Shown here: positions 7,545-24,880 of the stretch, in pieces
How the letters are laid out: each line of letters starts with the position of its first letter
How positions within the stretch are numbered: the first letter of the stretch is position 1
IMG/VR virus record: IMGVR_UViG_2654587686_000023
Source: a virus
Taxonomy: Duplodnaviria > Heunggongvirae > Uroviricota > Caudoviricetes
Length of the DNA: 30,377 nt
Direction: 5' to 3' (one strand)
The notes under the pieces: model-generated
The model's input: only the letters and a program-made list of their open reading frames with translations
Databases searched by the model: none
What the model was told of the DNA's origin: nothing
Translations under genes and position numbers: made by a program

Positions 7545-7908
7545 AAATGCAGAAATGGCGCTTAGCTCCGCAATCGGAGAGCAGGTGGCAAAGATTGCTG
7601 GTGCTGTGTGGATTCATAACCTTCATTCTACTGGTGAAGAGAAAATGGCAATTCAGACGCCAGAGGGACGCACCATTACTACATCTCTGAAGCCGTCAGA
7701 TGTTTGTGATCTGATTTGCGCATTCATGTACCCAGCAATGAGGACTGTCCACGGCGATAAGTGGAAACTTGCGACAACCGCTGAATTTGATATGTGGCTA
7801 AACAATGATGGCATGCTGACTGATTACGGAATAACCAAGTGGCAGATGCTGGTTAGCCATATCGCAAACGCTATAGACCACGTGGGGTACGGTGATGCGA
7901 AACATTGA
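7537..7908 (+). CDS. hypothetical protein (123 aa)
   Basis: ORF with GGAGG SD, overlapping neighbours at both ends. Confidence 0.55.
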   Translation: MRENAEMALSSAIGEQVAKIAGAVWIHNLHSTGEEKMAIQTPEGRTITTSLKPSDVCDLICAFMYPAMRTVHGDKWKLATTAEFDMWLNNDGMLTDYGITKWQMLVSHIANAIDHVGYGDAKH

Positions 7909-10651
7909 TCTTATCCGTCAGGTTATCAGTGCGTCTGAAAACAACTGGCCTCATGTGCTGGGCTGCCTGAACATAAATGTCCCTGACTCTCCGCGCCGTC
8001 ATGCTCCCTGCCCTGCATGTGGGGGCAAAGATCGATTCCGGTTCGATGACAACGGGCGCGGTAGCTTCATCTGTAATCAGTGCGGCGCTGGTGATGGGCT
8101 GGATTTAATTAAACGCGTAAATAACTGCGACACAACAGAGGCGGCGCTTCTTGCCGCTGATGTTCTGGGTATTGATTACCGGACAACGGAAACACCAGAA
8201 GCCACCAGCCAGAAACGGGAACAACTGGAAACCGAGCGCCAGCGACGCGAACAGGAGCGCCTGAAAAGGGCAGAGAAGGACGAACAACAAAGACGGGATA
8301 CGTTTTCCCGTCAGTTTGATGACATGCGCAGAAAGGCTGTAAACGGCAAATCTGATTATCTGGTTGCGAAAGGGGTAGGTGATTTTACATTCCCCGTGTT
8401 GCCCGATGGATCTCTGTTGCTGGCGCTGGTGGATAAATCCGGCGCAGTCACAGCAGCACAGACTATTACCTCACATGGTGAAAAAAGACTCCTGACAGGT
8501 TCAGCAAAGCGGGGGGCATATCACGCCATAAACGCACCAGAAACAACACAGAGCATCTTAATCGCAGAAGGGCTGGCAACGGCATTATCTGCCCATTTAA
8601 TTCGTCCAGAGGCGCTGACAGTGGCGGCGATTGATGCCGGGAACCTGTTATATGTCGCCCAGGTACTGCGGGATAAATATCCATCAGCACAAATCATCAT
8701 TGCTGCGGATAACGACCACAGCGAAGGAAGACAAAACACGGGGAGAATAGCAGCAGAAAAAGCAGCTTTATCTGTTTCTGGATGGGTGGCATTACCCCCG
8801 ACAGATCACAAAGCAGACTGGAATGATTACCACCAAAAACACGGCATTAAATGCGCCACAGAAGCGTTCAATAAGTCAATGTACCAACCACAGGGTAATG
8901 GCGTGAAACAGGAGCCACAGACCATTGAGGGAAGCGATTTTAAGGTTATGGATACCGACCCACTGAAACCAAGAATAGAAAGCCGCGAGGATGGTATTTA
9001 TTGGGTATCTCCGAGAGCTGACAGCCAGAGTGGAGAAATCATCAATAACGAAAGCTGGTTATGTTCTCCGTTAAGCGTTATCGGTACTGGCAGAGACGAT
9101 AAAGACCAGTATCTCATTCTTCGCTGGCTGTCGTTTGGTTCTGAAACGCCGACAACCGCTGCCATTCCACTGGCTGATATTGGTGAACGTGAAGGATGGC
9201 GCACACTTAAAGCTGGTGGGGTAAATGTCACGACCAAAAGCAGCCTCAGAGCAATACTGGCAGACTGGCTACAACGCAGTGGCTCTCGTGAATTGTGGCG
9301 TGTTGCTCATGCCACTGGCTGGCAATGCGGAGCGTACATCATGCCTGATGGGGAAATCATCGGAACACCTGAAAATCCTGTGCTGTTCAGCGGGAGAAGC
9401 TCAGCCGCAGCCGGATATACCGTCTCAGGGAGCGCGAAAAGCTGGCGTGATAACGTGGCGCGTCTGGCCTTTGGTAACTATTCAATGATGACCGGGATCG
9501 GCGCAGCACTGGCAGCGCCATTGATTGGGCTGGTGGGCGCTGACGGGTTCGGCATTCATTTCTATGAGCAGTCGAGCGCAGGTAAGACCACCACGGCAAA
9601 CGTGGCGAGCAGCTTATACGGCAACCCTGATTTACTGCGGCTGACGTGGTACGGAACCGCGCTGGGGCTGGCAAATGAAGCCGCCGCCCACAATGACGGA
9701 CTAATGCCGCTTGATGAAGTTGGTCAGGGCGCTGATCCTGTCAGTGTTTCACAGTCTGCCTATGCGTTATTTAACGGTGTAGGGAAACTGCAAGGCGCTA
9801 AAGATGGTGGAAACCGGGATCTAAAACGCTGGCGTACAGTGGCAATCAGCACTGGAGAAATGGATTTAGAAACATTTATCGCTACTTCCGGGCGAAAAAC
9901 CAAAGCCGGGCAACTGGTGCGACTGCTGAATATTCCGTTGAGTAAAGCAGTACGCTTTCACGATTACCAGAACGGAAAACAGCACGCAGACGCACTGAAA
10001 GACGCTTACCAGCATCACCACGGCGCAGCCGGGCGTGAGTGGATTAAATGGCTGGCAGACCACCAGCAACAGGCAATTAAAACTGTTCGTGACTGCGAAA
10101 GCAGATGGAGAAGTCTGATCCCATCCGATTATGGTGAGCAGGTTCACCGTGTAGCCGCGCGATTTGCCATTCTGGAGGCCGCATTGCTGTTAGGCGAGGT
10201 TGTAACAGGCTGGGATGCTCAGACATGCCGTGATGCGATACAGCACAGCTATAACGCATGGTTGCGCGAGTTCGGCACAGGTAACAAAGAACATCAGCAG
10301 ATTATTGAACAAACGGAGGCATTTCTTAATGCCTATGGGCTTAGCCGTTTTGCACCATTTCCATACAGCCCGGCAGATTTGCCCATCAAAGATTTGGCCG
10401 GATACCGTCAGCGTGGAGAACATGACGAAAGCCCAATGATTTTCTACACATTCCCGGCCACATTTGAAAAGGAGATCGCATGTGGTTTCAACGCAAAACA
10501 GTTTGCTGAAGTGTTGAAAAAAGCCGGGATGCTAACCCCACCAAACAGCGGTCGTGGATACCAAAGAAAATCACCACGTATTCAGGGACGACAAATAAAC
10601 GTTTATGTACTCAATTACCAGCCAGGAGATTATAACTCATCTGAAGAATGA
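7892..10651 (+). CDS. P4 alpha-like primase-helicase (zinc-binding primase domain + TOPRIM-like region + D5/DUF927-type NTPase)
   Basis: 919-aa ORF; N-terminal CPACGG...CNQCG zinc-ribbon typical of P4 alpha/bacteriophage primases; Walker A-like SSAGKTT in the C-terminal half; size and position typical for P4-like islands. Confidence 0.85.
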   Translation: MMRNIDLIRQVISASENNWPHVLGCLNINVPDSPRRHAPCPACGGKDRFRFDDNGRGSFICNQCGAGDGLDLIKRVNNCDTTEAALLAADVLGIDYRTTETPEATSQKREQLETERQRREQERLKRAEKDEQQRRDTFSRQFDDMRRKAVNGKSDYLVAKGVGDFTFPVLPDGSLLLALVDKSGAVTAAQTITSHGEKRLLTGSAKRGAYHAINAPETTQSILIAEGLATALSAHLIRPEALTVAAIDAGNLLYVAQVLRDKYPSAQIIIAADNDHSEGRQNTGRIAAEKAALSVSGWVALPPTDHKADWNDYHQKHGIKCATEAFNKSMYQPQGNGVKQEPQTIEGSDFKVMDTDPLKPRIESREDGIYWVSPRADSQSGEIINNESWLCSPLSVIGTGRDDKDQYLILRWLSFGSETPTTAAIPLADIGEREGWRTLKAGGVNVTTKSSLRAILADWLQRSGSRELWRVAHATGWQCGAYIMPDGEIIGTPENPVLFSGRSSAAAGYTVSGSAKSWRDNVARLAFGNYSMMTGIGAALAAPLIGLVGADGFGIHFYEQSSAGKTTTANVASSLYGNPDLLRLTWYGTALGLANEAAAHNDGLMPLDEVGQGADPVSVSQSAYALFNGVGKLQGAKDGGNRDLKRWRTVAISTGEMDLETFIATSGRKTKAGQLVRLLNIPLSKAVRFHDYQNGKQHADALKDAYQHHHGAAGREWIKWLADHQQQAIKTVRDCESRWRSLIPSDYGEQVHRVAARFAILEAALLLGEVVTGWDAQTCRDAIQHSYNAWLREFGTGNKEHQQIIEQTEAFLNAYGLSRFAPFPYSPADLPIKDLAGYRQRGEHDESPMIFYTFPATFEKEIACGFNAKQFAEVLKKAGMLTPPNSGRGYQRKSPRIQGRQINVYVLNYQPGDYNSSEE

Positions 10652-10670
10652 GCTTCTTCATGTGCGTAGA

Positions 10671-10798
10671 AAAGGTGTTGGTTCAGTTGGTTCAGTTGGT
10701 TCAGTTGGTTCAATTTGTAAAGAGTATTGTTTTATAAGGATTTTATTCTTTTTATTGAACCAACACTGAACCAACAACACGGTATTTTGAACCAACAC
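10671..10798. repeat. Iteron cluster A: four tandem GGTTCAGTT units (10680-10715) followed by three inverted TGAACCAACA copies (10756-10798); candidate alpha-binding crr/ori-type site
   Basis: Directly visible tandem and inverted repeats immediately 3' of the primase gene; by analogy with P4 alpha binding short iterons in ori and crr (established for P4, inferred here). Confidence 0.6.
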
Positions 10799-11117
10799 AA
10801 TGTGACTGAATTGATGCGCACAACACCTGGCTGGCATCAGAGAGTGTTTTACGAGACTTTCGTAAAATCCTGTGTACAAGGGCGTGACGTTTTTGAAAGT
10901 GAGCACTACGAAATTTTCGTAGTTCAAAAAACAGCCTCTGAGAAGTTGTTATGCCTGTTCAGCAAACCATCCGCATAGCTGATCGCGAATCAAATTACCA
11001 ATGGAGCCAGAAGCAAGGGCAGAACTGAAAAGTGCCTGCCGTGAAGAGTAATGCGACACCATAAATATAGTTTTTAGAGTCCATAAAAAACCAGTCAAAA
11101 CCTGACACACAGAACGA

Positions 11118-11149
11118 TGCCACCAGCTACTGAGCGGTGGCATTTTTTT
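11118..11149 (+). terminator. Rho-independent terminator (TGCCACC-loop-GGTGGCA + T7)
   Basis: 7-bp GC-rich stem, 11-nt loop, followed by TTTTTTT. Confidence 0.6.
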
Positions 11150-11244
11150 GTGCTATTTGTTTCATATTTTGCAATTACGATGATGAATATTGCGATTTAT
11201 GAAACTATAATAACTGTTGTTTTATACAGTTCTAAGGGGGCGTT

Positions 11245-11406
11245 ATGGCTATTTCAGTAAAGCCGGTATTGATAAGTGAGAAGCAAATGGAAGCGATAAA
11301 GAAAATTCAGGAAGAGCAGCGTAAAAAATCAGGAATTGGAGTAGCGCCAACTCTGCATGAAATTGCTCGAGGGTTAATAGATAAGGCGCTGGCAGGCTGT
11401 ATGTGA
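11245..11406 (+). CDS. small ribbon-helix-helix-like DNA-binding protein (53 aa)
   Basis: Short ORF below the 60-aa track cutoff, strong SD (AAGGGGG) 5 nt upstream of ATG; beta-strand then two helices pattern (ISEKQMEAIKKIQ...LHEIARGLIDKAL) typical of CopG/Arc-type proteins. Confidence 0.5.
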   Translation: MAISVKPVLISEKQMEAIKKIQEEQRKKSGIGVAPTLHEIARGLIDKALAGCM

Positions 11407-11422
11407 AAATGGATGGCATCGC

Positions 11423-11884
11423 ATGGAACTAAAATTTATTGATAACCCTGTGCGATTACAGGCCTTTCTTAACGATCCTGGCAATACCGAAAATATTGTT
11501 GAGCCGGGGCACACGTACTACATCAAGCCTGATGCGGTATATCTCGGCATCTACGAAGGATTGGTGCTGGCTGGCGTTCATGAAGTGCGTAACTTCTGGC
11601 ATAGCGTTGTTGAATGCCATGCGGTGTATGACCCCGGATTCCGTGGTGAATATGCACTGCAAGGGCATCGACTATTCTGCAAATGGCTTCTCGAAAACTC
11701 ACCATTCCTTAACAGCATCACTATGGTTCCTGACACCACGAAATACGGACGGGCAATTATCCGTTTGCTTGGCGCTACCCGTGTTGGTCACCTTGATGAT
11801 GCTTATATCAGATGTGGTAAACCCGTCGGCGTAACGCTTTATCAGTTAACTCGGCAACAATATAAGGAATTCAGCGAATGTTAA
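11423..11884 (+). CDS. hypothetical protein (153 aa), first gene of a coupled 4-gene operon
   Basis: ORF; stop overlaps the next start. No family recognised. Confidence 0.6.
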   Translation: MELKFIDNPVRLQAFLNDPGNTENIVEPGHTYYIKPDAVYLGIYEGLVLAGVHEVRNFWHSVVECHAVYDPGFRGEYALQGHRLFCKWLLENSPFLNSITMVPDTTKYGRAIIRLLGATRVGHLDDAYIRCGKPVGVTLYQLTRQQYKEFSEC

Positions 11885-12555
11885 TTACCCATATAGCTCA
11901 TAAACATCTCAATCGTGCCGTATACGAAAAAGGCGGTGATGGTGGTGCCTCTAAAGCTCAGGCGAAGGCCCAGCAGCAGGCAATTGATTTGCAGCGCGAG
12001 CAGTGGAATACGGTGATGAATAATCTCAAGCCGTATGCAGAAGTCGGATTGCCTGCTTTACAACAACTACAAGGACTGATGACTCTGGAAGGGCAGAATA
12101 AAGCCGCGAATGATTTCTTTGGTTCTGGTTTATATAAAACACAGGCAGATCAGGCCCGTTATCAGAACCTTGTCTCAGCAGAAGCTACCGGGGGGCTTGG
12201 CTCAACAGCTACCAGTAACCAGTTATCTTCCATTGCGCCCATGCTTTATAACAATTGGCTTAGTGGGCAAATGCAAAATTATGGAAACCTGCTAAATGTC
12301 GGGATGAATGCGGCATCAGGGCAGGCAACGGCAGGGCAAAACTACGCCAATAATACCGGACAACTCTTGCAGGGGCTTGGCGCTATTCGTGCAGGTCAGG
12401 CGCAGCAGCCATCCAGTCTTGCGCGTGGTATTGGTGGGGCAGCATCAGGCGCTTTAGCGGGTGCGCAACTTGGTTCCGTTGTTCCTGGAATAGGTACTGC
12501 GGCAGGCGCTATTGGTGGTGGGCTTATTGGTCTTGTTGGGGGGCTTGGATTCTAA
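11878..12555 (+). CDS. hypothetical protein (225 aa) with Gly/Ala-rich glycine-zipper-like C-terminus; phage ejection/internal-protein-like
   Basis: ORF with low-complexity C-terminal GxxxG-rich hydrophobic segment (GIGGAASGALAGAQLG...GGLIGLVGGLGF); start overlaps upstream stop. Confidence 0.6.
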   Translation: MLITHIAHKHLNRAVYEKGGDGGASKAQAKAQQQAIDLQREQWNTVMNNLKPYAEVGLPALQQLQGLMTLEGQNKAANDFFGSGLYKTQADQARYQNLVSAEATGGLGSTATSNQLSSIAPMLYNNWLSGQMQNYGNLLNVGMNAASGQATAGQNYANNTGQLLQGLGAIRAGQAQQPSSLARGIGGAASGALAGAQLGSVVPGIGTAAGAIGGGLIGLVGGLGF

Positions 12556-13874
12556 TGGCGACATGGCAACTTGGCGGGCTGCCTAGCATGGCACCGCAAA
12601 ATGATAATGCTCCTCGTTCTTCCGTTCCTCAGCCTGTGCAGTATCAGCAGCAGCCAAACGTAGGTTTAATGGCGCTACAGGGGCTAAGAGGCGTTGCTGA
12701 GATTAATCAGCAGGCGCAAATTTCCCAGCAGCTAAAAGAATATCAGGCACAGTTGGGTAGTGCGGTAGCTAATAATGATCGTGTTGGCGTGCAGAAGTTA
12801 ATGGCCCAGTATCCCCAGTTTATGGCTGATTCTCAAAAACAGATGGGATTCATTGATGCTGAGCAAAATCGGCAGACCGCTGACGCTGCCATGAATCTGC
12901 GTCTTGCGTCACAAACTGGAGATCCACTGACCATGCAGAAGGCCATTCAGCAGGCAAATCCAGTATTACAGCGATTTGGTCTTCCTGCTGAAGAGGTTTA
13001 TCAGTCTTGGCAGAATGACCCACAGGAATTCAACAGAATCACTGACCTCATCCACCTCCATGCTGATCCAAATAGTTACTTTAGTGTTCAAGAGAAGCAG
13101 CAAGGGCAGAGTATTGCACAGCAGAACGCAGATACATCTGCATATAATGCTCAGGTTAATGCGGAACAGGGTAATCGGCGTCTCGATATGGAGCAGTTCA
13201 AAGTCCTATCCGATAACCAGCTACGCACGAGAGAAATGGTTCTGAAAGCACGACTTGGACGTGCTCAAAATGACATCGAGAGAGACAAGCTCAATGCTGA
13301 ACTGAGCAAGGTACAGCAGGCGAAAGTGGAGAAGATGAACGATAAAATTAATACTGTTGCAGGTAACATCGACTCCTTGAACTCTGCGCTTGAAGTGGGT
13401 CATGAACTGGCGGGAATTGTAGGGAAACATCCTTCGGCCGTTACCCGTTCGCAGAACTATAACCCCCTGACGCTGGGGTTTGGATTCCTTCCTGATGTAG
13501 CAGAAGACACACGAAGCCTACGCGCCAAAGCTGATGAATACAACCTAAAGGTTATTCTGCCTAGCCTCAAAGGGACTTTTGGCTCTAACCCAACCGAAGG
13601 GGAAAGGGCTGCCCTTATGCAATCTCAAAATGGCATTAAGTCAGCAACCAGCAATGAGGCATTTTTGCGAGAGTTGAATAAAGCGCAGGACGTAATTATT
13701 CGAATGCAGAAACGACAGATTGCCGGGCTCGGTATTCCTGTAACCAAATCTAAGGACGAAGAAACTGATACTAAAATGCTGTTGCAGGATCCTTCTCTGG
13801 TTAAGGATTATGTGACCGCACATGGCTATCTGCCGGAAAGTTACTATCAGGCAAAACTTAAGGGATGGCAATGA
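12555..13874 (+). CDS. hypothetical Gln-rich, probably coiled-coil protein (439 aa); phage ejection/internal-protein-like
   Basis: ORF whose ATG overlaps the previous stop (TAATGG); Q-rich heptad-like sequence. Confidence 0.6.
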   Translation: MATWQLGGLPSMAPQNDNAPRSSVPQPVQYQQQPNVGLMALQGLRGVAEINQQAQISQQLKEYQAQLGSAVANNDRVGVQKLMAQYPQFMADSQKQMGFIDAEQNRQTADAAMNLRLASQTGDPLTMQKAIQQANPVLQRFGLPAEEVYQSWQNDPQEFNRITDLIHLHADPNSYFSVQEKQQGQSIAQQNADTSAYNAQVNAEQGNRRLDMEQFKVLSDNQLRTREMVLKARLGRAQNDIERDKLNAELSKVQQAKVEKMNDKINTVAGNIDSLNSALEVGHELAGIVGKHPSAVTRSQNYNPLTLGFGFLPDVAEDTRSLRAKADEYNLKVILPSLKGTFGSNPTEGERAALMQSQNGIKSATSNEAFLRELNKAQDVIIRMQKRQIAGLGIPVTKSKDEETDTKMLLQDPSLVKDYVTAHGYLPESYYQAKLKGWQ

Positions 13875-16591
13875 TGGCACAACTGACAGAAAAACAGAAA
13901 GCCTATTCCCGTCATCTCGATGAAAAATATGGTTTCCCATCAGGGACGATGGAAACATTAGTTGGCAATGAATCTAGTGGTAACGGAAGTGCCGAGTCAC
14001 CGAAAGGAGCTAGAGGATTTGCTCAACTGATGCCCTCAGTAATGAGTGATGCTGGTTATCGTGGAACAGATCCGCGCTCACTGCCATTTGAAAAGCAAAT
14101 GGATATCGCAGCAAACCATCTCAATAAAGGAATGAAGCGATTTGGTGATATAGGTATGGCATTGGCTGGGTATAATTCTGGCTATGCTCGTATTAATGCC
14201 GTAAGAAACGGTAAATCTACACTGCCAGATGAAACGGCTAATTACGTAAGTAAATTTGCAGATGCCGGAATAATCCCTGATGACAGTGAAATCTTGCAGT
14301 TTGCACAAACCAGTCAACATCGCAATCTTCAGCAGCCTGACTACTCAGAGCTTGATAAAGAAATCTCTCAGGTGGGAGATATTTCTGCATGGGAAGCAAA
14401 ACGTCAGCAATTTAAGAACATAGAAGCAGGACTACCAACAGCCAGTTCATGGGAGCAGAAAAGAGCTCATTTTCTCGCCGATGAAAATGCCGGGGAACCG
14501 CAGCAGCAAGTAGCCAAGTCTAACCTTAATCCTGAGATGGAATATCTTTCGCCAGGACTGAAAGCTGCGCCAGAGCAGATGGCCAGAGGGATTGCTAATA
14601 TACCGTTTGATGTAATGGACGCAGGCGTGGGGGTAGTCAATGCGGCGCAATCAGCCGGAGCATGGGCAGCTCAGAAGCTTGGTGTGGGTGATGGTACATA
14701 CACGCCCATATCACCTGTCTTTCGCCCAGTAGACCAACCTACAGATCCATACGCGCAGGCTGGTGAGCAGCTAGCACCTTACCTTATTACAGGATTAGGT
14801 GCAGGAAAGGCAGCTACCGCAGCTTCTTCAGTTGCCAACGCTCCACGTGCTGAACGTGCGGCCACAAAGGTGGCTAGTATGTTGGCAGAAAACCTGCCAG
14901 GTACATTGGTGAACGCCCAAAAGAACGGGCAGATCAGCCCAGAAGACCTAGCAAAAGAGACAGGTATTGGCCTAGCAGGATCGCTAGGAGCACGCGCTTT
15001 AATAAAGAGCGGACAGACAGCCAGTGACGTAATGCGAGATGTATTGCGGAGTAATACAAATCAATCAAGCTATGTGTTAGGGGCAGCAAATACTCTGGAA
15101 ACCGCCAATGATGTATCGAAAGCAGCGCGTTCTGCCGTAGGCCGAGAGCATATCGCATCGCAGGCATCAAACGTCAGAGATGATGTCGCTAAGGCGGCGA
15201 AAATCACTGGTATTAATATCAACACCCTGACGCCTGGAATGCGCTCAGGTAGTCGTGGAATTGCCCAAGCAGAAGGTGTTCTGGCATCAACTCCTGGGAA
15301 TGTTCAGGATGCTCACCTTACGGCCTTCAATGAAATATCCTCAAAGTTGAATAAGCAGTTGTCTGATTTCGGTGCTGAGTCTGGAAGCGCATCAGAAAAA
15401 AGCGCAGCAATTAAAGAGCGCATCATCGCGAGCCTCAGTGATATGAAAACAGCAGAGAATATGGCATGGGCAGAACTGCGAAGCACGATGCCACGCGAAA
15501 GGATGAAAATGAGTAATGGGATGGCTGTCGTCCAAGCAGAAAAAGCAGCCAATGTTCCACTCAGCCCGGAGATGAAACAGTTTCAGGCTGCCAATAACCA
15601 AGGTGGCGGCATAACCTTCGACGGGATGAAGGCATGGCGTGCTAAGTTTGCTGATGCTGAACAAGCAAACACCCGGGCAGGTAAGGCCAATGCCGCCCGG
15701 GTTGCCGGAGAAATGCGCAGAGCTATCACTGATGACATGCGCATCATGGCTGAAAAAGGAAACTTCCTCACAGAATGGCAGAAAGCTAACGATCTCTCTA
15801 AAAGTTACATTATCGCCAAACAAAATGCCGAATCTGTTTTTGGTCGAGATCTCGCATCAGACGCTATGGTAAGAAAAGGTGCCGATACGCTTAAGGCATC
15901 CGCAAACACTGGAACGGGAGCTTTTCACCGTCTTATCTCCGCGCTGCCGGAAGCAGAACGCCAACCAGCAATAGCATCTATTCTTCAGCATGCTGTGGCG
16001 CAGGGAGAGAAGGGAGGAATCGGTGAAGAGTCTGGTATCCAGTATTTTGCCAAGCTCATGACCCAGCAGAATGTAAACGCCATCAGTCGTCATGCGCCAG
16101 ATCTCGGTAGAATGATGAAAGAGTTCGGTGTACTCGCTAAAGCCAGCACCAGACCGCAGCGATACGTAGAGCGCACGGGAAGAACAACTGAGGCTCTCAA
16201 AACGCTCGATTCAGGCCTTCCAAAGATCGTCGGCGTGATTATGAACGGAGTTCAACAGTCAGGTGCGATCGCTGGAGGCTTTGGCGGTGGTGTAATTGGT
16301 TCGATTAGTGGTTTGGTTGCTGGTGGCGCGCTGAGAAATACTGTGGCTAAGATTGGGGCGACAAGAAGTGGTCGATATGCGATAGAGAAAGCCGTTCAGG
16401 AAGCTACAAAAGCAGTGCGCGCAGGGGCATCACCAGCAGCGATCGCCGCAGCAGAGAAACGATTTTCGGCCAATAAAATTGCCATGAAAGCAATTCGTGA
16501 TGCCGTTGGGGCTGAAGAATTCGTGAAACTGACAAGGGCCGGGATTGTAGCTACCCTCAGTGGCATGAAAGATGTTAGCGAATGGGAATAG
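13865..16591 (+). CDS. large protein (908 aa) with N-terminal lytic transglycosylase (SLT) motif; phage internal-virion/ejection-protein-like
   Basis: N-terminal ES...GARGFAQLMPS...AGYNSGY pattern matches the catalytic Glu-Ser and G-L-M-Q/AYN-G signatures of family-1 lytic transglycosylases; rest is Ala-rich low complexity; start overlaps upstream stop. Confidence 0.7.
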   Translation: MAMMAQLTEKQKAYSRHLDEKYGFPSGTMETLVGNESSGNGSAESPKGARGFAQLMPSVMSDAGYRGTDPRSLPFEKQMDIAANHLNKGMKRFGDIGMALAGYNSGYARINAVRNGKSTLPDETANYVSKFADAGIIPDDSEILQFAQTSQHRNLQQPDYSELDKEISQVGDISAWEAKRQQFKNIEAGLPTASSWEQKRAHFLADENAGEPQQQVAKSNLNPEMEYLSPGLKAAPEQMARGIANIPFDVMDAGVGVVNAAQSAGAWAAQKLGVGDGTYTPISPVFRPVDQPTDPYAQAGEQLAPYLITGLGAGKAATAASSVANAPRAERAATKVASMLAENLPGTLVNAQKNGQISPEDLAKETGIGLAGSLGARALIKSGQTASDVMRDVLRSNTNQSSYVLGAANTLETANDVSKAARSAVGREHIASQASNVRDDVAKAAKITGININTLTPGMRSGSRGIAQAEGVLASTPGNVQDAHLTAFNEISSKLNKQLSDFGAESGSASEKSAAIKERIIASLSDMKTAENMAWAELRSTMPRERMKMSNGMAVVQAEKAANVPLSPEMKQFQAANNQGGGITFDGMKAWRAKFADAEQANTRAGKANAARVAGEMRRAITDDMRIMAEKGNFLTEWQKANDLSKSYIIAKQNAESVFGRDLASDAMVRKGADTLKASANTGTGAFHRLISALPEAERQPAIASILQHAVAQGEKGGIGEESGIQYFAKLMTQQNVNAISRHAPDLGRMMKEFGVLAKASTRPQRYVERTGRTTEALKTLDSGLPKIVGVIMNGVQQSGAIAGGFGGGVIGSISGLVAGGALRNTVAKIGATRSGRYAIEKAVQEATKAVRAGASPAAIAAAEKRFSANKIAMKAIRDAVGAEEFVKLTRAGIVATLSGMKDVSEWE

Positions 16592-16741
16592 ACGCTCTAA
16601 CTAACAAAACCATAATAGCCAAGGACGGCATACTGATATTGAGCCAACTATCAAAATTCCATATCACATTACGAGCCTGTGGCTTACATTCGCTTACAGT
16701 GATGATAATTTATAACCACGCAATTCTTAGGTGAGATTATC

Positions 16742-17440
16742 ATGATTAAAAATCTTCTTTTAATATTATCCCTGTCATTATTGGCTGGATGCGTACAAAA
16801 ACCGTTAGTAACGGTCAATGCTTTATCTTCCGGGCAATCTGTCGGTAAGAAGTTCTTGATCATCCCCGCAAGCCAAGAACTTTGGAACACCAAACAGATT
16901 GAATACACTCAAATAGCTACGGTAGTAGCCGCCAGTTTATCAAGCCAAGGATATACACAAGTTAAAGATGAAAAATTGGCTGACCAGGTAATTCTCTTGA
17001 ACTTTTTGAGAAGCGGGGCCATTTCAAATACTCGTAATGTAACCATCCCAATATACGGGCAAACTGGTGTGAGCTCAGCAACAACGTACGGAAACTCGAA
17101 CACCACGTTCAATAGTTATGGTGGTGGCTACGGTACAGCTAATACCACTGGAACGGCAACAACAGTTTATACGCCTACTTATGGAATTACTGGCGCGTAT
17201 AACACAACTGTGACGGACACGTTCTACGGCGCAGGGGTGATACTCCAGTCGTTTGATGCCAAGGCCTATCTCAATAATAGGCAGATTAATATGTTATGGA
17301 AAGTTGGTAGCTCAGTCGTCTCGCAACAGTCTGATGGAATTGCTGATTACAAGGGGTTGGCGAGAATAGCCGCTAGCTATGCCGGGAAAAATACAGAAGG
17401 TGATATAACTTTTAATGTTGACCCTAAAGCACCAAATTAA
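16742..17440 (+). CDS. putative lipoprotein (232 aa), Thr/Gly/Tyr-rich
   Basis: N-terminal signal peptide with lipobox LLAGC (Cys at position 17); followed by a hairpin terminator. Confidence 0.7.
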   Translation: MIKNLLLILSLSLLAGCVQKPLVTVNALSSGQSVGKKFLIIPASQELWNTKQIEYTQIATVVAASLSSQGYTQVKDEKLADQVILLNFLRSGAISNTRNVTIPIYGQTGVSSATTYGNSNTTFNSYGGGYGTANTTGTATTVYTPTYGITGAYNTTVTDTFYGAGVILQSFDAKAYLNNRQINMLWKVGSSVVSQQSDGIADYKGLARIAASYAGKNTEGDITFNVDPKAPN

Positions 17441-17447
17441 CTAATAA

Positions 17448-17476
17448 GCCCGGTACGCCGGGCATTTTGCCCCCTA
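17448..17476 (+). terminator. Rho-independent terminator after lipoprotein gene (GCCCGG-TACG-CCGGGC + ATTTT)
   Basis: 6-bp GC stem/4-nt loop followed by T-rich tract 8 nt after the stop codon. Confidence 0.55.
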
Positions 17477-17624
17477 TTATTCATGAATCGCTTTTTCTAG
17501 AAGGTATGCGACAAACGTTAAGTGACATTGCCTACACATTCGGGGCGGGATTTCAAATCCGCTCCCAGTTGATGGGGCCGTTACAGTACGCGCATATCCG
17601 CTTTATGTGAAACAGGAAGATTTT

Positions 17625-17676
17625 TCTGATATCACTGCCACAGCAAAACACCAATTTCGAGACAAGTACGCGCGCG
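17625..17676. repeat. Repeat copy A: TCTGATAT...ACAAGTACGCGCGCG, (CG)n palindrome
   Basis: 15-mer ACAAGTACGCGCGCG at 17662-17676; same 15-mer also at 17948-17962 and 20654-20668. Confidence 0.7.
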
Positions 17677-17933
17677 AGGGGTATCAGTTGCAAAAAATTT
17701 TGCAACTACGTCCGACCAATACACACACGATGGCGGGGGATACCATAAAACTGTTCTCTACATGAGACAGAGTGGTGGTGATGTGTTGATTATCGGCCTA
17801 TATGCGCACAGGACGCGCTATGACAATGTTTTATGCGGGTACACCAATCACATGTATCTGGTGTGATAAATCGCGTTACATGACCTCTCATGTTGTGCTG
17901 GTGGTTATCACGACGTTCTGAATCTGGCTTTTG

Positions 17934-17962
17934 TCTGATATTTTGCGACAAGTACGCGCGCG
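17934..17962. repeat. Repeat copy B: TCTGATATTTTGCGACAAGTACGCGCGCG (contains 12-bp palindrome TACGCGCGCGTA)
   Basis: Seen in sequence; 29-bp unit shares about 24 positions with copy C. Confidence 0.7.
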
Positions 17963-18299
17963 TAACATCGAAATTATCGGATGGCGTATGTTGGTGGCAA
18001 GATAAAGTCGGCGTAATACAAAGGCGTTACTTGATAGCAGCAAGATTACAACAATGGTTGTTGAATTTGAGCGATGTAAGGAATTGATTTAGGGAGGCGC
18101 TGATGGCTAAAAAGTTCCACTACCAGCGGATGAATGCGCCAGCGATGGCCGTTTGGTAGTAAAAGAGGAGCCATTCCTCAATCAGTTGAATACATTATGC
18201 CAACTAAATGGGTGGGGGCACTGTGTGGGTATTCAGCGGTGACGGTATTTTTTAAGCCAAGGACTATCCGTAGCAGGGGGACTCATTTTGAAATATTTA

Positions 18300-18737
18300 T
18301 CATATGTAACTTATTATTTTAGATAAAGATTTCCAGTTAAAGAAAAAAGTTATCATTGATATAATCAAATATGCCCCTGCGAGTAGCAGGGCATAATAAT
18401 CCAGAGGCAGATTGCTGACAACAGGGGCAAACATCGAGATCATTGCTAATAGGCAGGCTGTGATCAGCGTAGTTCCTGTATCAAAAAGCCCCTCAATAAT
18501 GCCTTTTAGTACTCCGTTACTTTTTAGAGCGCCTACAATTCCCTTTGAACTATCAAAGCTACTTAGCATGGTGACTGATGCCAAAACAAAACCAAAGAGA
18601 ACTCCAGAAATAGTTGAAAGAGCACCAGCAGCCGAAATGACAGCATTGTGATCTAGGTCGTGTAAAAAATGGGCACCAGCAATAGCCATAGCTAGAGCAA
18701 ACAATGACTTGGCAGCAAACAATTTCCGAGAACTCAT
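18300..18737 (-). CDS. small integral membrane protein (145 aa, about four predicted TM helices); candidate effector of a two-gene defence/abortive-infection module
   Basis: ORF with AGGA SD 8 nt upstream; four hydrophobic segments by eye (approx. residues 7-27, 32-60, 87-107, 114-134); 12-bp gap to the upstream gene. Confidence 0.7.
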   Translation of the reverse strand: MSSRKLFAAKSLFALAMAIAGAHFLHDLDHNAVISAAGALSTISGVLFGFVLASVTMLSSFDSSKGIVGALKSNGVLKGIIEGLFDTGTTLITACLLAMISMFAPVVSNLPLDYYALLLAGAYLIISMITFFFNWKSLSKIISYI

Positions 18738-18749
18738 AATGTATTCCTG

Positions 18750-19835
18750 TTACGTTTGACTAACCAAATAGTACTGGGTTAGATACCTAAGGTTGTCATT
18801 CTTTGCTTGTAGCATAGCATTTTTAACGTCAGTATCGGTCGGATACCCATCTGCTTGGATAGGCACCATCTTCTTTACCGTAAGAACTTCGTCTACAAGA
18901 CTTTTCTTCTTTTTATCGCCCTGAGCAACAACATTTGCTTTCTCAAAAGTTAAACGACCATCACCACCAGGGAACTTTTCTAGCATCTCCTTAAGGCTTT
19001 TTTTAACGTCATCCTCAAGCCATCCCTTTGCTTTTCTTTTTAATGGAGAATGTCCGCGTAACGAAATAGTCAGGTGGCTTGAACTGGTGCCTCTGATCAT
19101 CTCAATCATCTGATTCGCGAACATTCCATCGAGTTGATACTGTGCGGCATTGAAGTTTCTTGGGATGGCCACAGAAATCTCGCAGCTTCTTAGATTGGAT
19201 CCAGTTTCGAGTAGTTCTTTGATGCTTTCTTCTTTCCAAATGGCTTCAAAAGAAACAGGGACTCCGCGATCACTGGAGTTGAAAAGAAGGAAGGCTAAGT
19301 CACTATGGCGTGGACCTAAATGATTTAAAGACAATACTAGAATGTCTGTCTGAGGATAATAAATAAAGTATGTACGTTCTGAAAGAGTCTTTGCCCCGGC
19401 TAGAGGGATTTTCTCTTCCACCCACTCTTTATCTGTAATATATGCCAGTGTTGCGCTTTTTCTTCTTCGAGACATGAATCCGAAGTAGGAGCCATCCTCG
19501 GGTGAGATGTCTAGAAAATGAATTTTAAGTTCTCTTTCACCAAAGTCTGCATAGTGGGTCATCTTGAAGTCTTTAGAACACCGATCATAGAGATTTTTAA
19601 AGGCCTCTGCGGTTAACCCCTTGTTACTAGTGCGAATATTCTCAGAGCTTGTGTAAAAGCCCACCCTTACAGATTTCAAACTTTGATCTTTTGGTGCCAC
19701 AGTCATTTGAGCTCCATTGTACTCTGCGATAGTTTTTGCACACCTTGAAATCAAAATCTCCATGTCAGTCACGAGAAAATAACTATGGATGAAACCCATC
19801 AAAGGCATTGAATACAGGTGGCTTTTGAGAATCAT
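18750..19835 (-). CDS. hypothetical soluble protein (361 aa as drawn; alternative start at MTVAPKD... about 43 codons downstream has a better SD)
   Basis: Long ORF on minus strand immediately upstream of the membrane-protein gene; no recognisable catalytic motif. Confidence 0.7.
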   Translation of the reverse strand: MILKSHLYSMPLMGFIHSYFLVTDMEILISRCAKTIAEYNGAQMTVAPKDQSLKSVRVGFYTSSENIRTSNKGLTAEAFKNLYDRCSKDFKMTHYADFGERELKIHFLDISPEDGSYFGFMSRRRKSATLAYITDKEWVEEKIPLAGAKTLSERTYFIYYPQTDILVLSLNHLGPRHSDLAFLLFNSSDRGVPVSFEAIWKEESIKELLETGSNLRSCEISVAIPRNFNAAQYQLDGMFANQMIEMIRGTSSSHLTISLRGHSPLKRKAKGWLEDDVKKSLKEMLEKFPGGDGRLTFEKANVVAQGDKKKKSLVDEVLTVKKMVPIQADGYPTDTDVKNAMLQAKNDNLRYLTQYYLVSQT

Positions 19836-20186
19836 CCTAACCTGGTGACGGTGGTTCGCATATCCTGATGGATGATCAGTGATTAATCAATGCGCCAAGC
19901 AGATGTGTCTATGTGTTTGTTAATCATTGCATGACAGTAGATCGACATGGGAGATCACGTTATATAGTTGAATTGTTAGGATATCCATGCACCGATCAAC
20001 TGACTAGGCTGATGTGCTTTTTAGCAGGTGCCATATAGTAGTTAGGCGGTTCTGTGAAATGATTACTGTTCCAGCATAACTGCGGCATAAAGCGGTGCTA
20101 TATAAGCTATTTGCTGGCGGATTTAGTCTTCACCGTTCATATATGTAGTGACTATTTGACAGAGTGTTAGTTCACGGACACTTTTT

Positions 20187-20293
20187 GTTGGTTCAAAATG
20201 AGTTGATGTTGGTTCAATATTTTAGAAAAAACACAATAAAAACAACGCTCTTTACAAATTGAACCAACTGAACCAACTGAACCAACACCTTTT
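20187..20293. repeat. Iteron cluster B: two TGTTGGTTCA copies (20187-20216) plus three inverted AACTGAACC-type units (20258-20284); inverted partner of cluster A
   Basis: 20248-20293 is the reverse complement of 10671-10724 apart from one 9-bp unit (both arms include AAAGGTGTT and CAATTTGTAAAGAG). Confidence 0.7.
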
Positions 20294-20322
20294 TGCTTAT
20301 CTATATAATCTGAGAGGCAGAA

Positions 20323-20604
20323 ATGATAAGGGACAGGAAAGCTGAAGAGCTGGAGTCAAAAGGGCTATACCGGAGAGCTGCCGCACGATGGATGGAAGTC
20401 ATGCTGTTATGCAGCGAGGACGATGATCGGGAATGGATAAAGCGCCGCCGTGAAACGTGTCTGGAGAACGTGAAGCGCCCGCCCGTGAAGGTTGAGGAAT
20501 TTGGCGACCTGCATAAAGCTGTTACCGAAACGCAACACCGCATGGGGATAGCGCAACCGAACGGTAACGCCTTCCGGTTAAATGGCGGCAAGAGGCAAAG
20601 GTAG
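20323..20604 (+). CDS. PerC-family transcriptional activator-like protein (93 aa)
   Basis: N-terminal KAEELESKGLYRRAAARWMEVM and REWIKRRRETC pattern resembles PerC/Pch-family proteins common in P4-like islands (recalled similarity). Confidence 0.65.
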   Translation: MIRDRKAEELESKGLYRRAAARWMEVMLLCSEDDDREWIKRRRETCLENVKRPPVKVEEFGDLHKAVTETQHRMGIAQPNGNAFRLNGGKRQR

Positions 20605-20639
20605 ACCACCAGAGGGAAATCATCCTCTGGCTGGCGGTT

Positions 20640-20668
20640 TCTGGTATTTCGGAACAAGTACGCGCGCG
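20640..20668. repeat. Repeat copy C: TCTGGTATTTCGGAACAAGTACGCGCGCG (14-bp palindrome TACGCGCGCGCGTA)
   Basis: Third copy of the ACAAGTACGCGCGCG 15-mer. Confidence 0.7.
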
Positions 20669-20901
20669 CGTAGCACCCAATCGGTGAGGAAATAGCGGCG
20701 ACCTGAATGGTCAAAATCACAACGCAGCTATCCCCGTAAGCAGCGCTTAACGGAATAGCAGTAACCTGAATCCAGTGGGGAGGGGGTAGTCAAATCTCTA
20801 CAGCCCTGACTATCCGGGACTGCCCGCCCCATCGTTTTTTTATACCCGCGAAAAATGAAATTTAATCCGGGCGTGTTTCATCCTTCCAGAGGGTATGACG
20901 T

Positions 20902-21087
20902 ATGACACCACGCGAAATAGCCTTATTGACCATCGCCAAACTTGAGCACGGAGGCCACCAGCTTACACAGGCAGATCAACGGGAGATAGAACGATCAGTT
21001 AATGCCGATATAGCCCGGCGCGACAGGTTCCGCGAAATGATGCGAGCACCTGCCTACCAGTGGAAGAAGCCAGCGCCGCGCAGGTAG
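20902..21087 (+). CDS. small hypothetical protein (61 aa)
   Basis: ORF with AGAGGG SD-like sequence upstream. Confidence 0.45.
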   Translation: MTPREIALLTIAKLEHGGHQLTQADQREIERSVNADIARRDRFREMMRAPAYQWKKPAPRR

Positions 21088-21207: not shown

Positions 21208-21750
21208 ATGTACCAGCTAAAGATAACCATCCGAGACAGCAAACCACCTATATGGCGGCGTGTGCTGGTTCCAGAGCAAATCCCCTTTAGTAAACTTCAT
21301 GCCGTGATCCAGTTAGCTTTTGGCTGGAATGACGAACACCTGTATATGTTCGAGAAAGGGCGTAAAGGTGATCCAGGTAGCGAGTATCGCGTATGGGGTG
21401 AGGATGAAAGCATGGGTAACGCGGCAATCACGCCACTATGGGCGGCGCTCCAGAATGAGGGTGACAAGCTGGTTTACACGTATGACTTTGGCGACTGGTG
21501 GGATTGCGTCATTGTGCTGGAGAAGCAAACACACGATACGAGTAATCAGCCCATTAGCTGCCTGCGTGGGAAAGGCACCACCCCGGCGGAAAACTCAGGC
21601 GGCTTGCATGGTTACAATGAATTGCTATTACAGGCCAGAGAGTCTGATAATCCTGAGCAGGCCGAGATCCACAATTTCCTGATGCTGGATATTGAACGCC
21701 GGGTTTACGACCTGAGCCGCATCAACGACAGATTGCAGGCTATTAACTGA
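21208..21750 (+). CDS. pRiA4b ORF-3-like family protein (180 aa)
   Basis: N-terminal YQLKITIRDSKPPIWRRVLVP...LHAVIQLAFGW...HLYMF pattern matches the plasmid pRiA4b ORF-3-like domain (recalled). Confidence 0.65.
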   Translation: MYQLKITIRDSKPPIWRRVLVPEQIPFSKLHAVIQLAFGWNDEHLYMFEKGRKGDPGSEYRVWGEDESMGNAAITPLWAALQNEGDKLVYTYDFGDWWDCVIVLEKQTHDTSNQPISCLRGKGTTPAENSGGLHGYNELLLQARESDNPEQAEIHNFLMLDIERRVYDLSRINDRLQAIN

Positions 21751-22102
21751 CCCGCATGTATTCACCTGATATTGCGTTGTCAGCGCCGCCAGTATCGCGC
21801 ATAACAGCGCACTGACCGGGTAAACCGTAGCGCACGACCGTTGCGTTAGTATCACCGCCGCGCCGTATCTGGCGCGATTCATACACTGTCACCCGCTCAA
21901 GCAGTCCACCAGCAACCATGCTTTCCAGTGTGCGCCGGGTTGATTCGAGCTGGTGACGCTTATCGAACGACACCATGCCATGAAGCAGGTAGGCCACACC
22001 CGACACATCGAACGGCGGCGCACCAATCTCACCAGTCACCCATTCGAGGTTATCCGGTTCAAAGTAGCTAAGTATCTCTTTTTTGCGACTGGTCATTCTC
22101 AT
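21743..22102 (-). CDS. hypothetical protein (119 aa)
   Basis: ORF on minus strand, overlaps 3' end of the preceding gene by 8 nt. Confidence 0.45.
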   Translation of the reverse strand: MRMTSRKKEILSYFEPDNLEWVTGEIGAPPFDVSGVAYLLHGMVSFDKRHQLESTRRTLESMVAGGLLERVTVYESRQIRRGGDTNATVVRYGLPGQCAVMRDTGGADNAISGEYMRVS

Positions 22103-22322: not shown

Positions 22323-22925
22323 AAGAAAATCAATAACTTAGCTTAACTTCTCTAAGAAATTGTATCTTCTGTTATCACTTACAAACGCCTATACGTTGTT
22401 ATGGGCTTTGGTAGTGTAACACGTATGGGCGAGTAGTTCCCAGGCTCAACCTCGTAACAAGTTCCTTTGAAGCTGGAAGACGTGCCACCGTCTCTAAACC
22501 TTCTACCAAAACTCTTAGCAAGATGTTCCACACCTGGCGCGGTGTCCAATGATGCCACACGTCGTGAGACGTTGCAGAGGATAAACAGGCTAAATGATGG
22601 GAAGAGTTTTAAGTGCAATAGTGGATTAAAGCCCACCTCTTCAAAACCTAACTTGATCGGGAAAGAATCAAGCTCTAGCACGGTTTCGTCCACCGGAGTA
22701 CAACGGGTGCCTGATAAGAGAAGAACTGCTAAGACTTCATAGCTTTTGTGAAAAAGCCCTTTTTAGTGGATACGCCTACGGCGCTTATTTTTTGGTATAA
22801 CCATCAAAGGCGCTTTATGGCTCCTATTGTCTTGAAAATGTATCTTTACTTGTATTGTGTTTTATGCGTAGTCTCCCTGTGTAGTATGTAACTTGTTAAT
22901 TTTCATATGAATACAGAGGCACACG

Positions 22926-23084
22926 ATGAAAAACATTGCAGCTATAAAACGTAATAACCGCAAGATTCACGCTCGTAAGTTCCTGTCTACGCCAGAAGGA
23001 AAAGCCTGGTTAGAGCGTAAACAGAGAGAGAACGAAGAAAGAAAACTCCTTAGTGAGTTGAAATGGCTTAGAGAGGATTTCTGA
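22926..23084 (+). CDS. small basic hypothetical protein (52 aa)
   Basis: Short ORF below track cutoff with GAGG 7 nt upstream of ATG; Lys/Arg-rich. Confidence 0.3.
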   Translation: MKNIAAIKRNNRKIHARKFLSTPEGKAWLERKQRENEERKLLSELKWLREDF

Positions 23085-23380
23085 AAATCTCCAGAACGCA
23101 ACAGGACGCATTCTAACGCTGTTTTCATTGCTTGGTATAGGGATGTATAGGTGATGTGTGTTTAATGCGTCTGTGAGCTTGTTTTGTGCCTTATTTTGCA
23201 TTTTCATAATGCAGAAGAGAACACGGAAAGCCTTAAAATTAATTATTGGGGTATTTAAGGCTATTTTTAGGGTATTTAAGGGTATTAAACTTGATTTAAT
23301 TGATTAAAATATAAACAGATAGTTCTGTATCTTATTGATTTATAAGGTTATTTTTAAATAAAGATAAATAAAAAATAAAT

Positions 23381-23430
23381 AGCCATAAATAGCCATAAAT
23401 AGCTATAAATACATCTAAATACATATGAAT
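23381..23430. repeat. Five tandem 10-bp units (AGCCATAAAT x2, AGCTATAAAT, ACATCTAAAT, ACATATGAAT)
   Basis: Helical-period (10 bp) direct repeats visible in sequence; further GGTATTTAAGG-like repeats at about 23245-23300. Confidence 0.6.
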
Positions 23431-23525
23431 CCCCTCCCTTATGGCTAGATTGCGAGAGGTGCTTAACGCGATTTTCAGCGCCCCCCGATCTGGAAAATCC
23501 AGAATCCCCAAATATCAAGGAGGCA

Positions 23526-24065
23526 TTACGCCTCCTCTTCTTCCTTCTTAATTCGCTGTACCGTTGAAGGAGCAACATTAAAGCTCTCGGCGGTTTTACG
23601 CACTGACAGGCCATCAGAAAGGGCTTTCTTTATACCTTCTCTATCTACTGCTTTTCCATTACCACGCTTTGTAGGATTGACGGCTTGCGCTTCTCGTTTA
23701 CGCTCTAACATCAGTTCACGTTCACACGTTGCAACTGCCGACAACATCGTAAGCATCATTTTTCCCATCGCGCTTGTAATGTCTGCAATGATCCCTTCTT
23801 TATGAAATCGAACAATTACACCTCGATTATTAAGTTGTTCCACTAAGGCAAGAATGTCTAAGGTGTTACGCCCTAAACGGTCGAGAGAGTGCACGTGTAA
23901 GGTGTCGCCTTCTCTCAGATAGGATAAACACGCCTGCAATCCTGGACGGTTAGTGTCTTTACCTGACAGCTTATCTTCAAAGACTTTATCAAGCGTTACT
24001 CCTGCAAGCTGGCGATCAGTGTTCTGATCTACAGTGCTCACACGCTTATAACCGATATTGCTCAT
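23526..24065 (-). CDS. small serine recombinase (resolvase/invertase family, 179 aa)
   Basis: N-terminal IGYKRVSTVDQNTDRQ with the catalytic-serine context typical of resolvase/invertase-type serine recombinases; short C-terminal DNA-binding region; size matches small resolvases. Confidence 0.85.
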   Translation of the reverse strand: MSNIGYKRVSTVDQNTDRQLAGVTLDKVFEDKLSGKDTNRPGLQACLSYLREGDTLHVHSLDRLGRNTLDILALVEQLNNRGVIVRFHKEGIIADITSAMGKMMLTMLSAVATCERELMLERKREAQAVNPTKRGNGKAVDREGIKKALSDGLSVRKTAESFNVAPSTVQRIKKEEEEA

Positions 24066-24079
24066 AAAATCCCCTTAAT

Positions 24080-24784: not shown

Positions 24785-24794
24785 GAACTACAAT

Positions 24795-24880
24795 AAGACT
24801 ATTAATAAAACTATATTAGATTATTAATTAGATCATAATAATAATATTCTTTATATCTATATATATATATGATCTTTTGC
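24795..24880. other. AT-rich putative DNA unwinding element adjacent to the iterons
   Basis: Nearly pure A/T run with TATATATATATA; iteron + AT-rich arrangement is standard for theta-type origins. Confidence 0.5.

Follow-up and report, generated by a model that had tools for sequence, protein, structure and literature searches.

The question raised by this locus is what function attaches to two arrays of 9-bp repeats (iterons) that face each other across 9.4 kb of genes. Both lie in a stretch of 30,377 nucleotides (IMG/VR record IMGVR_UViG_2654587686_000023, Caudoviricetes), the whole of which is referred to below as the window, and the first of them follows directly on the gene for a primase–helicase, the presumed replicase. 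The window is, judged by its sequence, an EcCIMP1-like phage-inducible chromosomal island (PICI), that is, a phage satellite of Escherichia coli, located at tRNA-Thr. A preliminary description had taken the segment from 10671 to 20293 for cargo bracketed by inverted iteron arrays, and had proposed that the arrays might be P4-type ori/crr sites bound by an alpha primase, or repeats that allow the cargo to be inverted or exchanged. The evidence presented here makes it highly probable that the two arrays are the replicase-binding arms of the replication-origin region of the island, and a split PICI origin is a more apt description of the segment than a cargo cassette ending in recombination sites.

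The two arrays belong to longer inverted modules of about 135 bp (left, 10670–10805; right, 20160–20293), which show 79% column identity over their full length and are built on one plan, with tandem 9-bp iterons separated by an AT-rich spacer of 43 bp from three spaced repeats in the opposite orientation (Table 1). An inverted-repeat search paired 10686–10733 with 20239–20286 (48 nt, 96% complementary) and 10670–10709 with 20254–20293 (40 nt, 95% complementary), in agreement with the near-perfect inversion first described; since the additional half-sites noted beside each array are also real, three opposed repeats being present on either side, the inverted similarity spans about 135 bp. The tandem repeats of the left arm had been parsed as four copies of GGTTCAGTT. 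Four units are indeed present, but the parsing is one register off: the fourth unit reads GGTTCAATT, and ATTTGTAAAGAG comes directly after the four units, inside the AT-rich spacer. Most other E. coli copies have three tandem units at this place, against the four of the window. A chance occurrence of the repeats can be rejected: the window holds 12 exact copies of the motif, all inside the two clusters, where chance predicts 0.23 in the window, and 18 copies with at most one mismatch against 6.45 expected, a number reached by none of 100 shuffles. The spacers, both of exactly 43 bp, contain 84% (left) and 79% (right) AT as compared with 55% for the window, and the ATTTGTAAAGA and TTTATAAGG motifs of the left spacer are kept in relatives. 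The left array begins 26 bp past the primase stop codon (10649–10651).

This position proved to be general. Scanning the primase protein against one genome per species gave 77 loci, 50 of which extend at least 150 bp beyond the primase stop, and in 49 of these 50 Enterobacterales loci an iteron module follows the replicase gene at a distance of 24–48 bp (about 25–30 bp in most); only locus L063 shows no repeats there. The common plan comprises three tandem 9-bp units, an AT-rich stretch and three opposed units, with a unit sequence that is specific to the lineage; six iteron types were distinguished (GTTGGTTCA, GTTGTCTCA, ACGGGTTA, GTCGGTTCA, GGTCGGTT and GTCGGGTA). When the architecture was tallied on 50 loci that differ slightly from these (L063 left out, L046 included), both arms were found adjacent to one another, in a cluster of 250–400 bp, in 26 loci, and split by 0.4–9 kb, with the second arm always inverted, in nine; ten loci have a single arm within a full 10-kb flank, and in five the flank is too short to judge. 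The adjacent form amounts to one dyad-symmetric origin of about 300 bp, placed between the primase gene and the operon that follows, in which a first module, a central CTGGCTGGCA-like motif and an inverted second module succeed one another, and the tandem end of the second module is followed by cacTTTTGCTTATATATA, which closely resembles the right flank of the window, ACCTTTTTGCTTATCTATATAAT. Split arms were seen in Lonsdalea, Chimaeribacter, Rosenbergiella, Pantoea, Serratia, Limnobaculum, Leclercia and Cedecea, nine loci in all. On the primase tree the split, single and adjacent forms are intermixed, which points to repeated splitting or to frequent recombination of modules.

The geometry of the arms is as constant as their position. 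Start-to-start spacings in arm 1 are 9, 9, 52, 11 and 21 bp in 10 of 11 loci from eight genera (9, 9, 62, 11 and 21 in L040), and those in arm 2 are 21 (or 22), 21, 52, 9 and 9 across 11 loci of eight genera, L040 departing in one spacing. The arms thus resemble mirror images without being identical, and what sets them apart, an inner spacing of 11, 21 in arm 1 as against 21, 21 in arm 2, is itself conserved. Every two-arm locus carries the same iteron type in both arms, including that of Limnobaculum with its divergent GGTCGGTT. When seven right arms of four genera were aligned, 52 of 54 iteron columns proved invariant, as against 24 of 67 spacer columns (Fisher p = 6e-13).

The protein that would read these sites is composite. 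Residues 8–362 of the primase–helicase are 33% identical to the primase domain of P4 alpha, residues 403–814 match the structure of Rep from Staphylococcus aureus pathogenicity islands (SaPIs; 8tch, E 1e-11), and past residue 362, in the DUF927 part, there is no similarity to P4 alpha. A structure model of the last 279 residues, computed with 40 homologues, gave predicted local distance difference test (pLDDT) values of 85–96 for the C-terminal 110 residues, which are arranged as strands, two helices and strands; it replaced an earlier model of 159 residues from fragment homologues, which was discarded because its pLDDT was 45.6. Foldseek matched the model to the self-loading helicase Cch of the staphylococcal cassette SCCmec (E 7e-5) and to TcpK (probability 0.99, target TM-score 0.63), a winged-helix protein whose structure was determined in complex with oriT DNA; a search of the PDB with the C-terminal sequence profile returned no match. 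Across related loci, the C-terminal stretch of about 80 residues of the primase varies in step with the iteron type. Once regressed on core identity, C-terminal identity leaves a residual of +0.09 for pairs of the same type and of −0.06 for pairs of different type (Mann–Whitney p = 7e-31, the pairs being non-independent); at comparable core identity, same-type pairs are 9–16 points more identical in the C-terminal segment than different-type pairs, and the N-terminal control region shows merely a small shift in the opposite direction. The change can be seen locally, RKSPRIQ in GTTGGTTCA primases being replaced by GRV-RED in GTTGTCTCA primases within near-identical flanking sequence. The primase–helicase thus most likely recognises the iterons through its predicted winged-helix-like C-terminal domain. 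The arms are most likely binding sites of the replicase because they share an iteron type, because this type tracks the primase C-terminus and because their geometry is constant in eight genera.

Such an arrangement corresponds to what has been established for PICI origins, which lie immediately downstream of rep, consist of two opposed iteron sets around an AT-rich region and are recognised by a self-loading helicase through its C-terminal winged-helix domain (PMC9371898; PMC6092414). In the window, opposed iteron sets flank an AT-rich region in both arms, and the left arm lies immediately 3′ of pri-rep; the right arm on its own does not, but it abuts the left arm in the 26 relatives of adjacent form. 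Experimentally, the primase and origin of the island EcCICFT073 are able to drive plasmid replication (Fillol-Salom et al. 2018; PMC6092414). Its primase and its iterons differ from those of the window, but its origin shares the dyad layout, in which inverted tandem arrays of TGTCTACC lie on the outside, 190 bp apart. The DUF927 part of the window protein is homologous to SaPI Rep, and the mode of action proposed here is also that of SaPI Rep proteins and of the EcCICFT073 primase–origin pair. A second inverted origin unit 9.4 kb away, with an ejection module and an accessory hotspot in between, is not described for PICI and SaPI origins in the literature compared. SaPI replication origins have reportedly been the subject of work by Ubeda and Novick.

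According to the mechanism that we propose, the primase–helicase of the island would bind the left-arm iterons via its C-terminal winged-helix-like domain, melt the 43-bp AT-rich stretch of this arm, load itself as a helicase and then prime synthesis. In the window lineage and in several other genera, genes would have been inserted at the origin centre, and the origin thereby split, leaving its arms to bracket helper-exploitation genes and a variable accessory hotspot (9.4 kb in the window). That the replicase binds the iterons and that initiation occurs at the left arm we infer from homology and co-variation. PICI origins of this type are known; the split, inverted form with genes between the arms appears to be undescribed in the literature compared (PMC9371898; PMC6092414; PMC11773190).

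The likeness to P4, with which the locus was first compared, is a good functional analogy only. In P4, too, short iterons of one sequence and mixed orientation are found at two separate cis sites, one of them directly past the replicase gene; P4 needs both sites for its replication, and its alpha protein is thought to loop the distant sites ori and crr. Membership of the P4 type nevertheless fails on the iteron, on the structure of crr and on the helicase family. The P4 iteron is TGTTCACC (type I), and GTTGGTTCA is absent from the P4 genome; crr is made of two direct 120-bp repeats, as against the single inverted units of the window, and according to the GenBank annotation lies 46 bp after the alpha stop, with ori 4.5 kb away, upstream of the alpha operon. 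The window protein is not of the alpha type, in which a primase is joined to a D5/DUF5906-type helicase and a C-terminal iteron-binding domain: its helicase belongs to the DUF927 family, like those of SaPI Rep and Cch, and its helicase and DNA-binding parts are unrelated to those of alpha. The original proposal is supported in that the arrays behave as binding sites of the island's replicase, the arms being of one type and this type tracking the primase C-terminus, and in that one site, like crr, is directly 3′ of the replicase; protein, iteron and arm structure are not those of P4, and the supposed alpha gene, which the left array does follow closely, encodes a product that is alpha-like only in its N-terminal 360 residues. 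Additional arrays of initiator sites, distant from the site of melting, also occur in iteron plasmids (P1 incA, F incC, R6K alpha/beta/gamma), where they act by titration, handcuffing or looping. These second arrays are direct repeats that flank the rep gene and have no AT-rich unit of their own, whereas downstream of the cargo in the window the second site is an entire origin unit in inverted orientation.

Since its anatomy is the same as that of the left arm, the right arm probably binds the same replicase, and the chances that it contributes to replication in the window island are about even. Its role may lie in initiation, in looping or copy control of the crr/incA kind, or mainly in the control of flanking promoters. 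Several observations weigh against a split origin read by the replicase. The ten relatives that show one arm only in full 10-kb flanks imply that a second arm is not universally needed, or that it is located farther away, and the pairwise shift in C-terminal identity is partly confounded by shared ancestry. The main caution as to the need of the right arm in replication comes from islands in which it is orphaned. In some E. coli islands, a DUF5906 replicase takes the place of the Toprim–DUF927 protein and the left module is replaced by CCTRTACCA iterons, which indicates that replicase and neighbouring iterons travel together as a single cassette. Yet the GTTGGTTCA right arm is intact in four of six such islands (it is truncated in one and deleted together with perC in another), and it also survives in a decayed island whose primase was deleted. 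The right arm can therefore persist without its presumed binding protein, which would fit a recent swap but may also reflect a role unrelated to replication. Intact right arms in all five TOPRIM islands as compared with four of six DUF5906 islands are too few to show relaxed selection. The CCTRTACCA iterons themselves form two clusters on either side of two small genes (L005:11383–11485 and 12492–12596; also in L006 and L086–L089), so that a two-site layout recurs with an unrelated replicase.

Alternatively, only the left arm may be the origin, the right arm being a control element of the same replicase that acts by titration or handcuffing, by looping, or as an operator for perC or the accessory promoters. 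We consider this possible but on balance unlikely. In all E. coli variants possessing both neighbours, the right arm does lie between divergent genes, a single arm seems to suffice for some relatives, and the consistent difference in inner spacing shows that the two arms are not interchangeable copies. A flank like TTTTGCTTATATATA, moreover, is conserved past the tandem end in most relatives, though not in Leclercia locus L060. However, the right arm retains the full anatomy of an origin unit, with its own AT-rich spacer of 43 bp and the same 52-bp span as the left arm, and a scan for consensus sigma-70 promoters found no site at the right arm, nor around the left one, so that a promoter reading of the TTTTGCTTATATATA flank remains a guess.

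A right arm without function, left over from an earlier duplication or from recombination between two islands, is very improbable. Its persistence in islands without a matching primase would agree with such an origin, as would its loss or truncation in two of the six DUF5906 islands and the shortening of its tandem array to two units in two others. But the iterons keep their positions and sequences from genus to genus, whereas the spacers diverge. The geometry, too, is the same in eight genera, and the iteron type equals that of arm 1 in all six specificity groups.

Very unlikely is the view that the arrays serve as crossover sites for a cassette of the Hin/Gin/Cin type, inverted or exchanged by site-specific recombination. 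The repeats are inverted and nearly identical over 48 nt, the cargo differs between isolates and between genera, and a serine recombinase gene (23526–24065) lies 3.2 kb to the right. This recombinase, however, is part of an adjoining element, and other two-arm islands lack it, so that no dedicated invertase is linked to the repeats, which co-vary with the replicase and not with any recombinase. A synthetic inverted junction was found in none of 526 E. coli genomes that gave partial hits, a search with power only for the few that share the variable region of the window, and all sampled copies are collinear: the cargo is co-oriented with the primase gene in 53 near-full-length copies, in ten annotated E. 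coli islands that retain the replicase and in the seven split loci of other genera with annotated cargo. The inversion envisaged at the outset therefore found no support. Least credible of all is that the arrays are terminal inverted repeats of a transposon-like cargo inserted beside the primase gene, for although they bracket a 9.4-kb gene block, there is no transposase domain among the eight cargo open reading frames (ORFs) scanned and no direct repeat visible just outside the arms, the left arm is always fixed 24–48 bp past the replicase stop, and the same two arms lie adjacent, with nothing between them, in 26 relatives.

Exchange of the cargo fared better than its inversion. Different cargo is found between the same arms across isolates and genera, and the right arm of the window is mosaic: its outer spacer is like those of E. 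coli MP1 and Leclercia and its inner part like that of islands carrying an Abi gene, the MP1-type arm itself resembling the Leclercia arm. This mosaicism implies crossovers inside the right arm. Exchange by ordinary homologous recombination is thus plausible from the sequences, and the idea of cassette exchange is in part upheld. Beyond the arm, the genes for a pRiA4b ORF-3 family protein and for an unknown protein of 119 residues (window 21208–22102) have counterparts in Lonsdalea britannica (L018:19414–20356) with 95–96% protein identity, as against only 78% between the primases of L. britannica and E. coli, which suggests a recent exchange of the right end of the island with a breakpoint near the arm. 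The term cargo itself applies only partly: most of the segment is a conserved ejection-protein module, and it is the last 1–3 kb before the right arm that varies between E. coli isolates.

As to the island itself, the window opens within proA; tRNA-Thr (1369–1444), a tyrosine integrase, an AntA-family gene, an Ash-family gene and the primase–helicase come next. Identity in the region 7800–21000 amounts to 100% with E. coli CB209 and to 98.8%, over 84% of the region, with E. coli MP1, which carries EcCIMP1, a PICI mobilised by the P22-like phage Kapi1 (PMC11773190; Pick, Stadel and Raivio 2025). The two islands share the thrW site and a gene order of integrase, primase, 'DNA transfer' genes and perC; they differ in the variable region, where the window has two unknown genes instead of alpA_1, and in the left-arm tandem iterons, four in the window and three in EcCIMP1. 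Neither an origin nor iterons are mentioned anywhere in the EcCIMP1 paper (PMC11773190). EcCIMP1-like islands occur in about a tenth of complete E. coli genomes (some 520 of 5426), about 514 having an intact junction between right arm and perC and about 526 the 3′ end of the Toprim–DUF927 primase gene.

Table 1. Coordinates of the origin arms and of the genes around them in the window
Feature	Position	Strand	Basis or remark
Primase–helicase, 919 aa	7892..10651	+	Pfam Zn_Ribbon_Prim, Toprim_3, DUF927; C-terminal winged-helix-like domain (predicted)
Left arm, four tandem 9-bp GTTGGTTCA units	10677..10712	+	Sequence, inverted-repeat and motif searches
Left arm, 43-bp AT-rich spacer, 84% AT, motifs ATTTGTAAAGA and TTTATAAGG	10713..10755		Presumed DNA-melting site
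Left arm, three spaced opposed repeats, starts 10756, 10767, 10788 (11 + 21 bp apart)	10756..10796	-	Motif search
CTGGCTGGCA central motif	10827..10836		Origin centre in adjacent-arm relatives; inserted genes begin just 3′ of it in the window
Conserved cargo: small ORF and P22 ejection-protein homologues	11245..16591	+	Pfam, RefSeq annotation
DUF2824/gp14-like	11423-11884	+	Pfam, RefSeq annotation
gp7-like	11878-12555	+	Pfam, RefSeq annotation
gp20-like	12555-13874	+	Pfam, RefSeq annotation
gp16-like with SLT domain, 908 residues	13865-16591	+	Pfam, RefSeq annotation
Hypothetical protein, 232 aa	16742..17440	+	Present in E. coli islands with this ejection-gene set (L001-L003, L006, L085)
Variable accessory region adjoining right arm	17441..20159	-	Comparison of annotated E. 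coli islands
Unknown genes in variable region (145 and 361 aa)	18300-18737, 18750-19835	-	Annotation
Right arm, three spaced repeats, starts 20166 (GTTAGTTCA), 20187, 20208, 21 bp apart	20166..20216	+	Sequence, motif search
Right arm, 43-bp AT-rich spacer, 79% AT, ends in CTCTTTACAAAT	20217..20259		Sequence
Right arm, three tandem TGAACCAAC units	20260..20286	-	Sequence, inverted-repeat and motif searches
Outer flank ACCTTTTTGCTTATCTATATAAT, conserved, leads into perC	20287..20322	+	Comparison with relatives
perC-family regulator, first gene past right arm	20323..20604	+	Pfam PerC, E 1e-30

Among annotated E. coli islands the ejection module is stable and exists as two alternative gene sets, variation being restricted to the end next to the right arm. 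The gp20-like protein shares just 25–28% identity with phage gp20, so that its gene is not a recent prophage fragment. The 232-residue hypothetical protein, which is absent from islands with the alternative ejection-gene set, has no match in Pfam or PADLOC. The two genes of the variable region are likewise without a Pfam match, and a PADLOC scan of these and the other unknown cargo proteins gave none; in other isolates this region holds Abi, ImmA/IrrE, the helix-turn-helix (HTH) gene alpA_1, insertion sequence (IS) elements or unknown genes. In the islands surveyed for this hotspot (the window, L002, L003, L005–L007, L086, L088 and L089), the gene next to the arm is mostly on the minus strand and divergent from perC, which is itself followed by the pRiA4b ORF-3 family gene.

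Elsewhere in the window, Rfam models identify isrK (5246–5323, 67.8 bits) and C4 antisense RNA (5386–5473, 79.9 bits) inside the Ash-family ORF (4865–5932), and these matches point to an RNA immunity element of the P4/P1 type in the island. Past the island, a second mobile element occupies 22700–30377. It includes the serine recombinase already mentioned, which is encoded on the minus strand, short tandem repeats at 23242–23283 and 23375–23414, a region without any ORF of at least 80 residues (24065–26435), an HTH_36 protein (26435–27124), a capsid E-family protein (29228–30256) and, at the end of the window, RNA-OUT of IS10; a nucleotide comparison of this part with EcCICFT073 revealed no similarity.

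Some further details of the relatives concern the anatomy of the origin. The CTGGCTGG(CA) motif at the centre of adjacent-arm origins is also found twice after the unrelated DUF5906 origin (L005:11500–11600), and in five relatives (L040, L042, L046, L048 and L064) it reads GCTGGTGG, the Chi sequence, just after arm 1; the motif may serve in priming or as a hotspot of recombination. On the cargo side of arm 2, five genera (L018, L025, L026, L031 and L065) have a direct-repeat pair, GTAAGACA-N2-3-GTAAGACA, which may be the binding site of another protein or the remnant of a different iteron type. In Yersinia pekkanenii (L039) three copies of an adjacent-arm origin (8155–8413, 12737–12995 and 13918–14206) accompany a stretched primase match (10001–13866), suggesting a duplication or insertion within this replicon.

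The genes held between the arms deserve attention in their own right. The cargo differs completely between genera, and six of the eight lineages considered have genes between the arms whose products can be recognised as virion DNA-delivery or tail-tip proteins (window 11423–16591; L025:14632–18042; L060:16228–18912; L040:13002–16125; L026:14448–16250; L065:16258–18012). These are P22-like ejection proteins in E. coli, tape measure proteins in Chimaeribacter and Leclercia, Dit, hub and gpV spike proteins in Serratia, and SLT proteins of 584–600 residues in Rosenbergiella and Cedecea; the cargo proteins of Lonsdalea (L018) and Pantoea (L031) have no Pfam match. It is tempting to speculate, as a tentative proposal that we rate below an even chance, that the origin centre is a dedicated slot for delivery genes matched to the tail of the helper, together with defence genes, and that the iteron arms are recombination anchors through which modules are exchanged between genera. 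If so, an exchange of modules would retarget the satellite to a new type of helper, or satellite DNA could gain entry to cells closed to the ejection machinery of the helper itself. These DNA-delivery genes, with their possible match to the helper, are a more intriguing lead than the split origin itself.

With this analysis the origin of the EcCIMP1-like islands, previously unannotated, is filled in. The link between C-terminal residues of the primase and iteron type is a readable code that could serve the design of orthogonal conditional replicons, and replicons of this kind are already used for phage-delivered payloads. PICI origins have so far been treated as one compact site beside the replicase gene; here two inverted arms lie kilobases apart. 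The split origin is thus a natural system in which to ask how large a part of a PICI origin is required and at what point replication starts, whether a satellite replicase loops distant sites, and how accessory and helper-exploitation genes reach a fixed position in the island.

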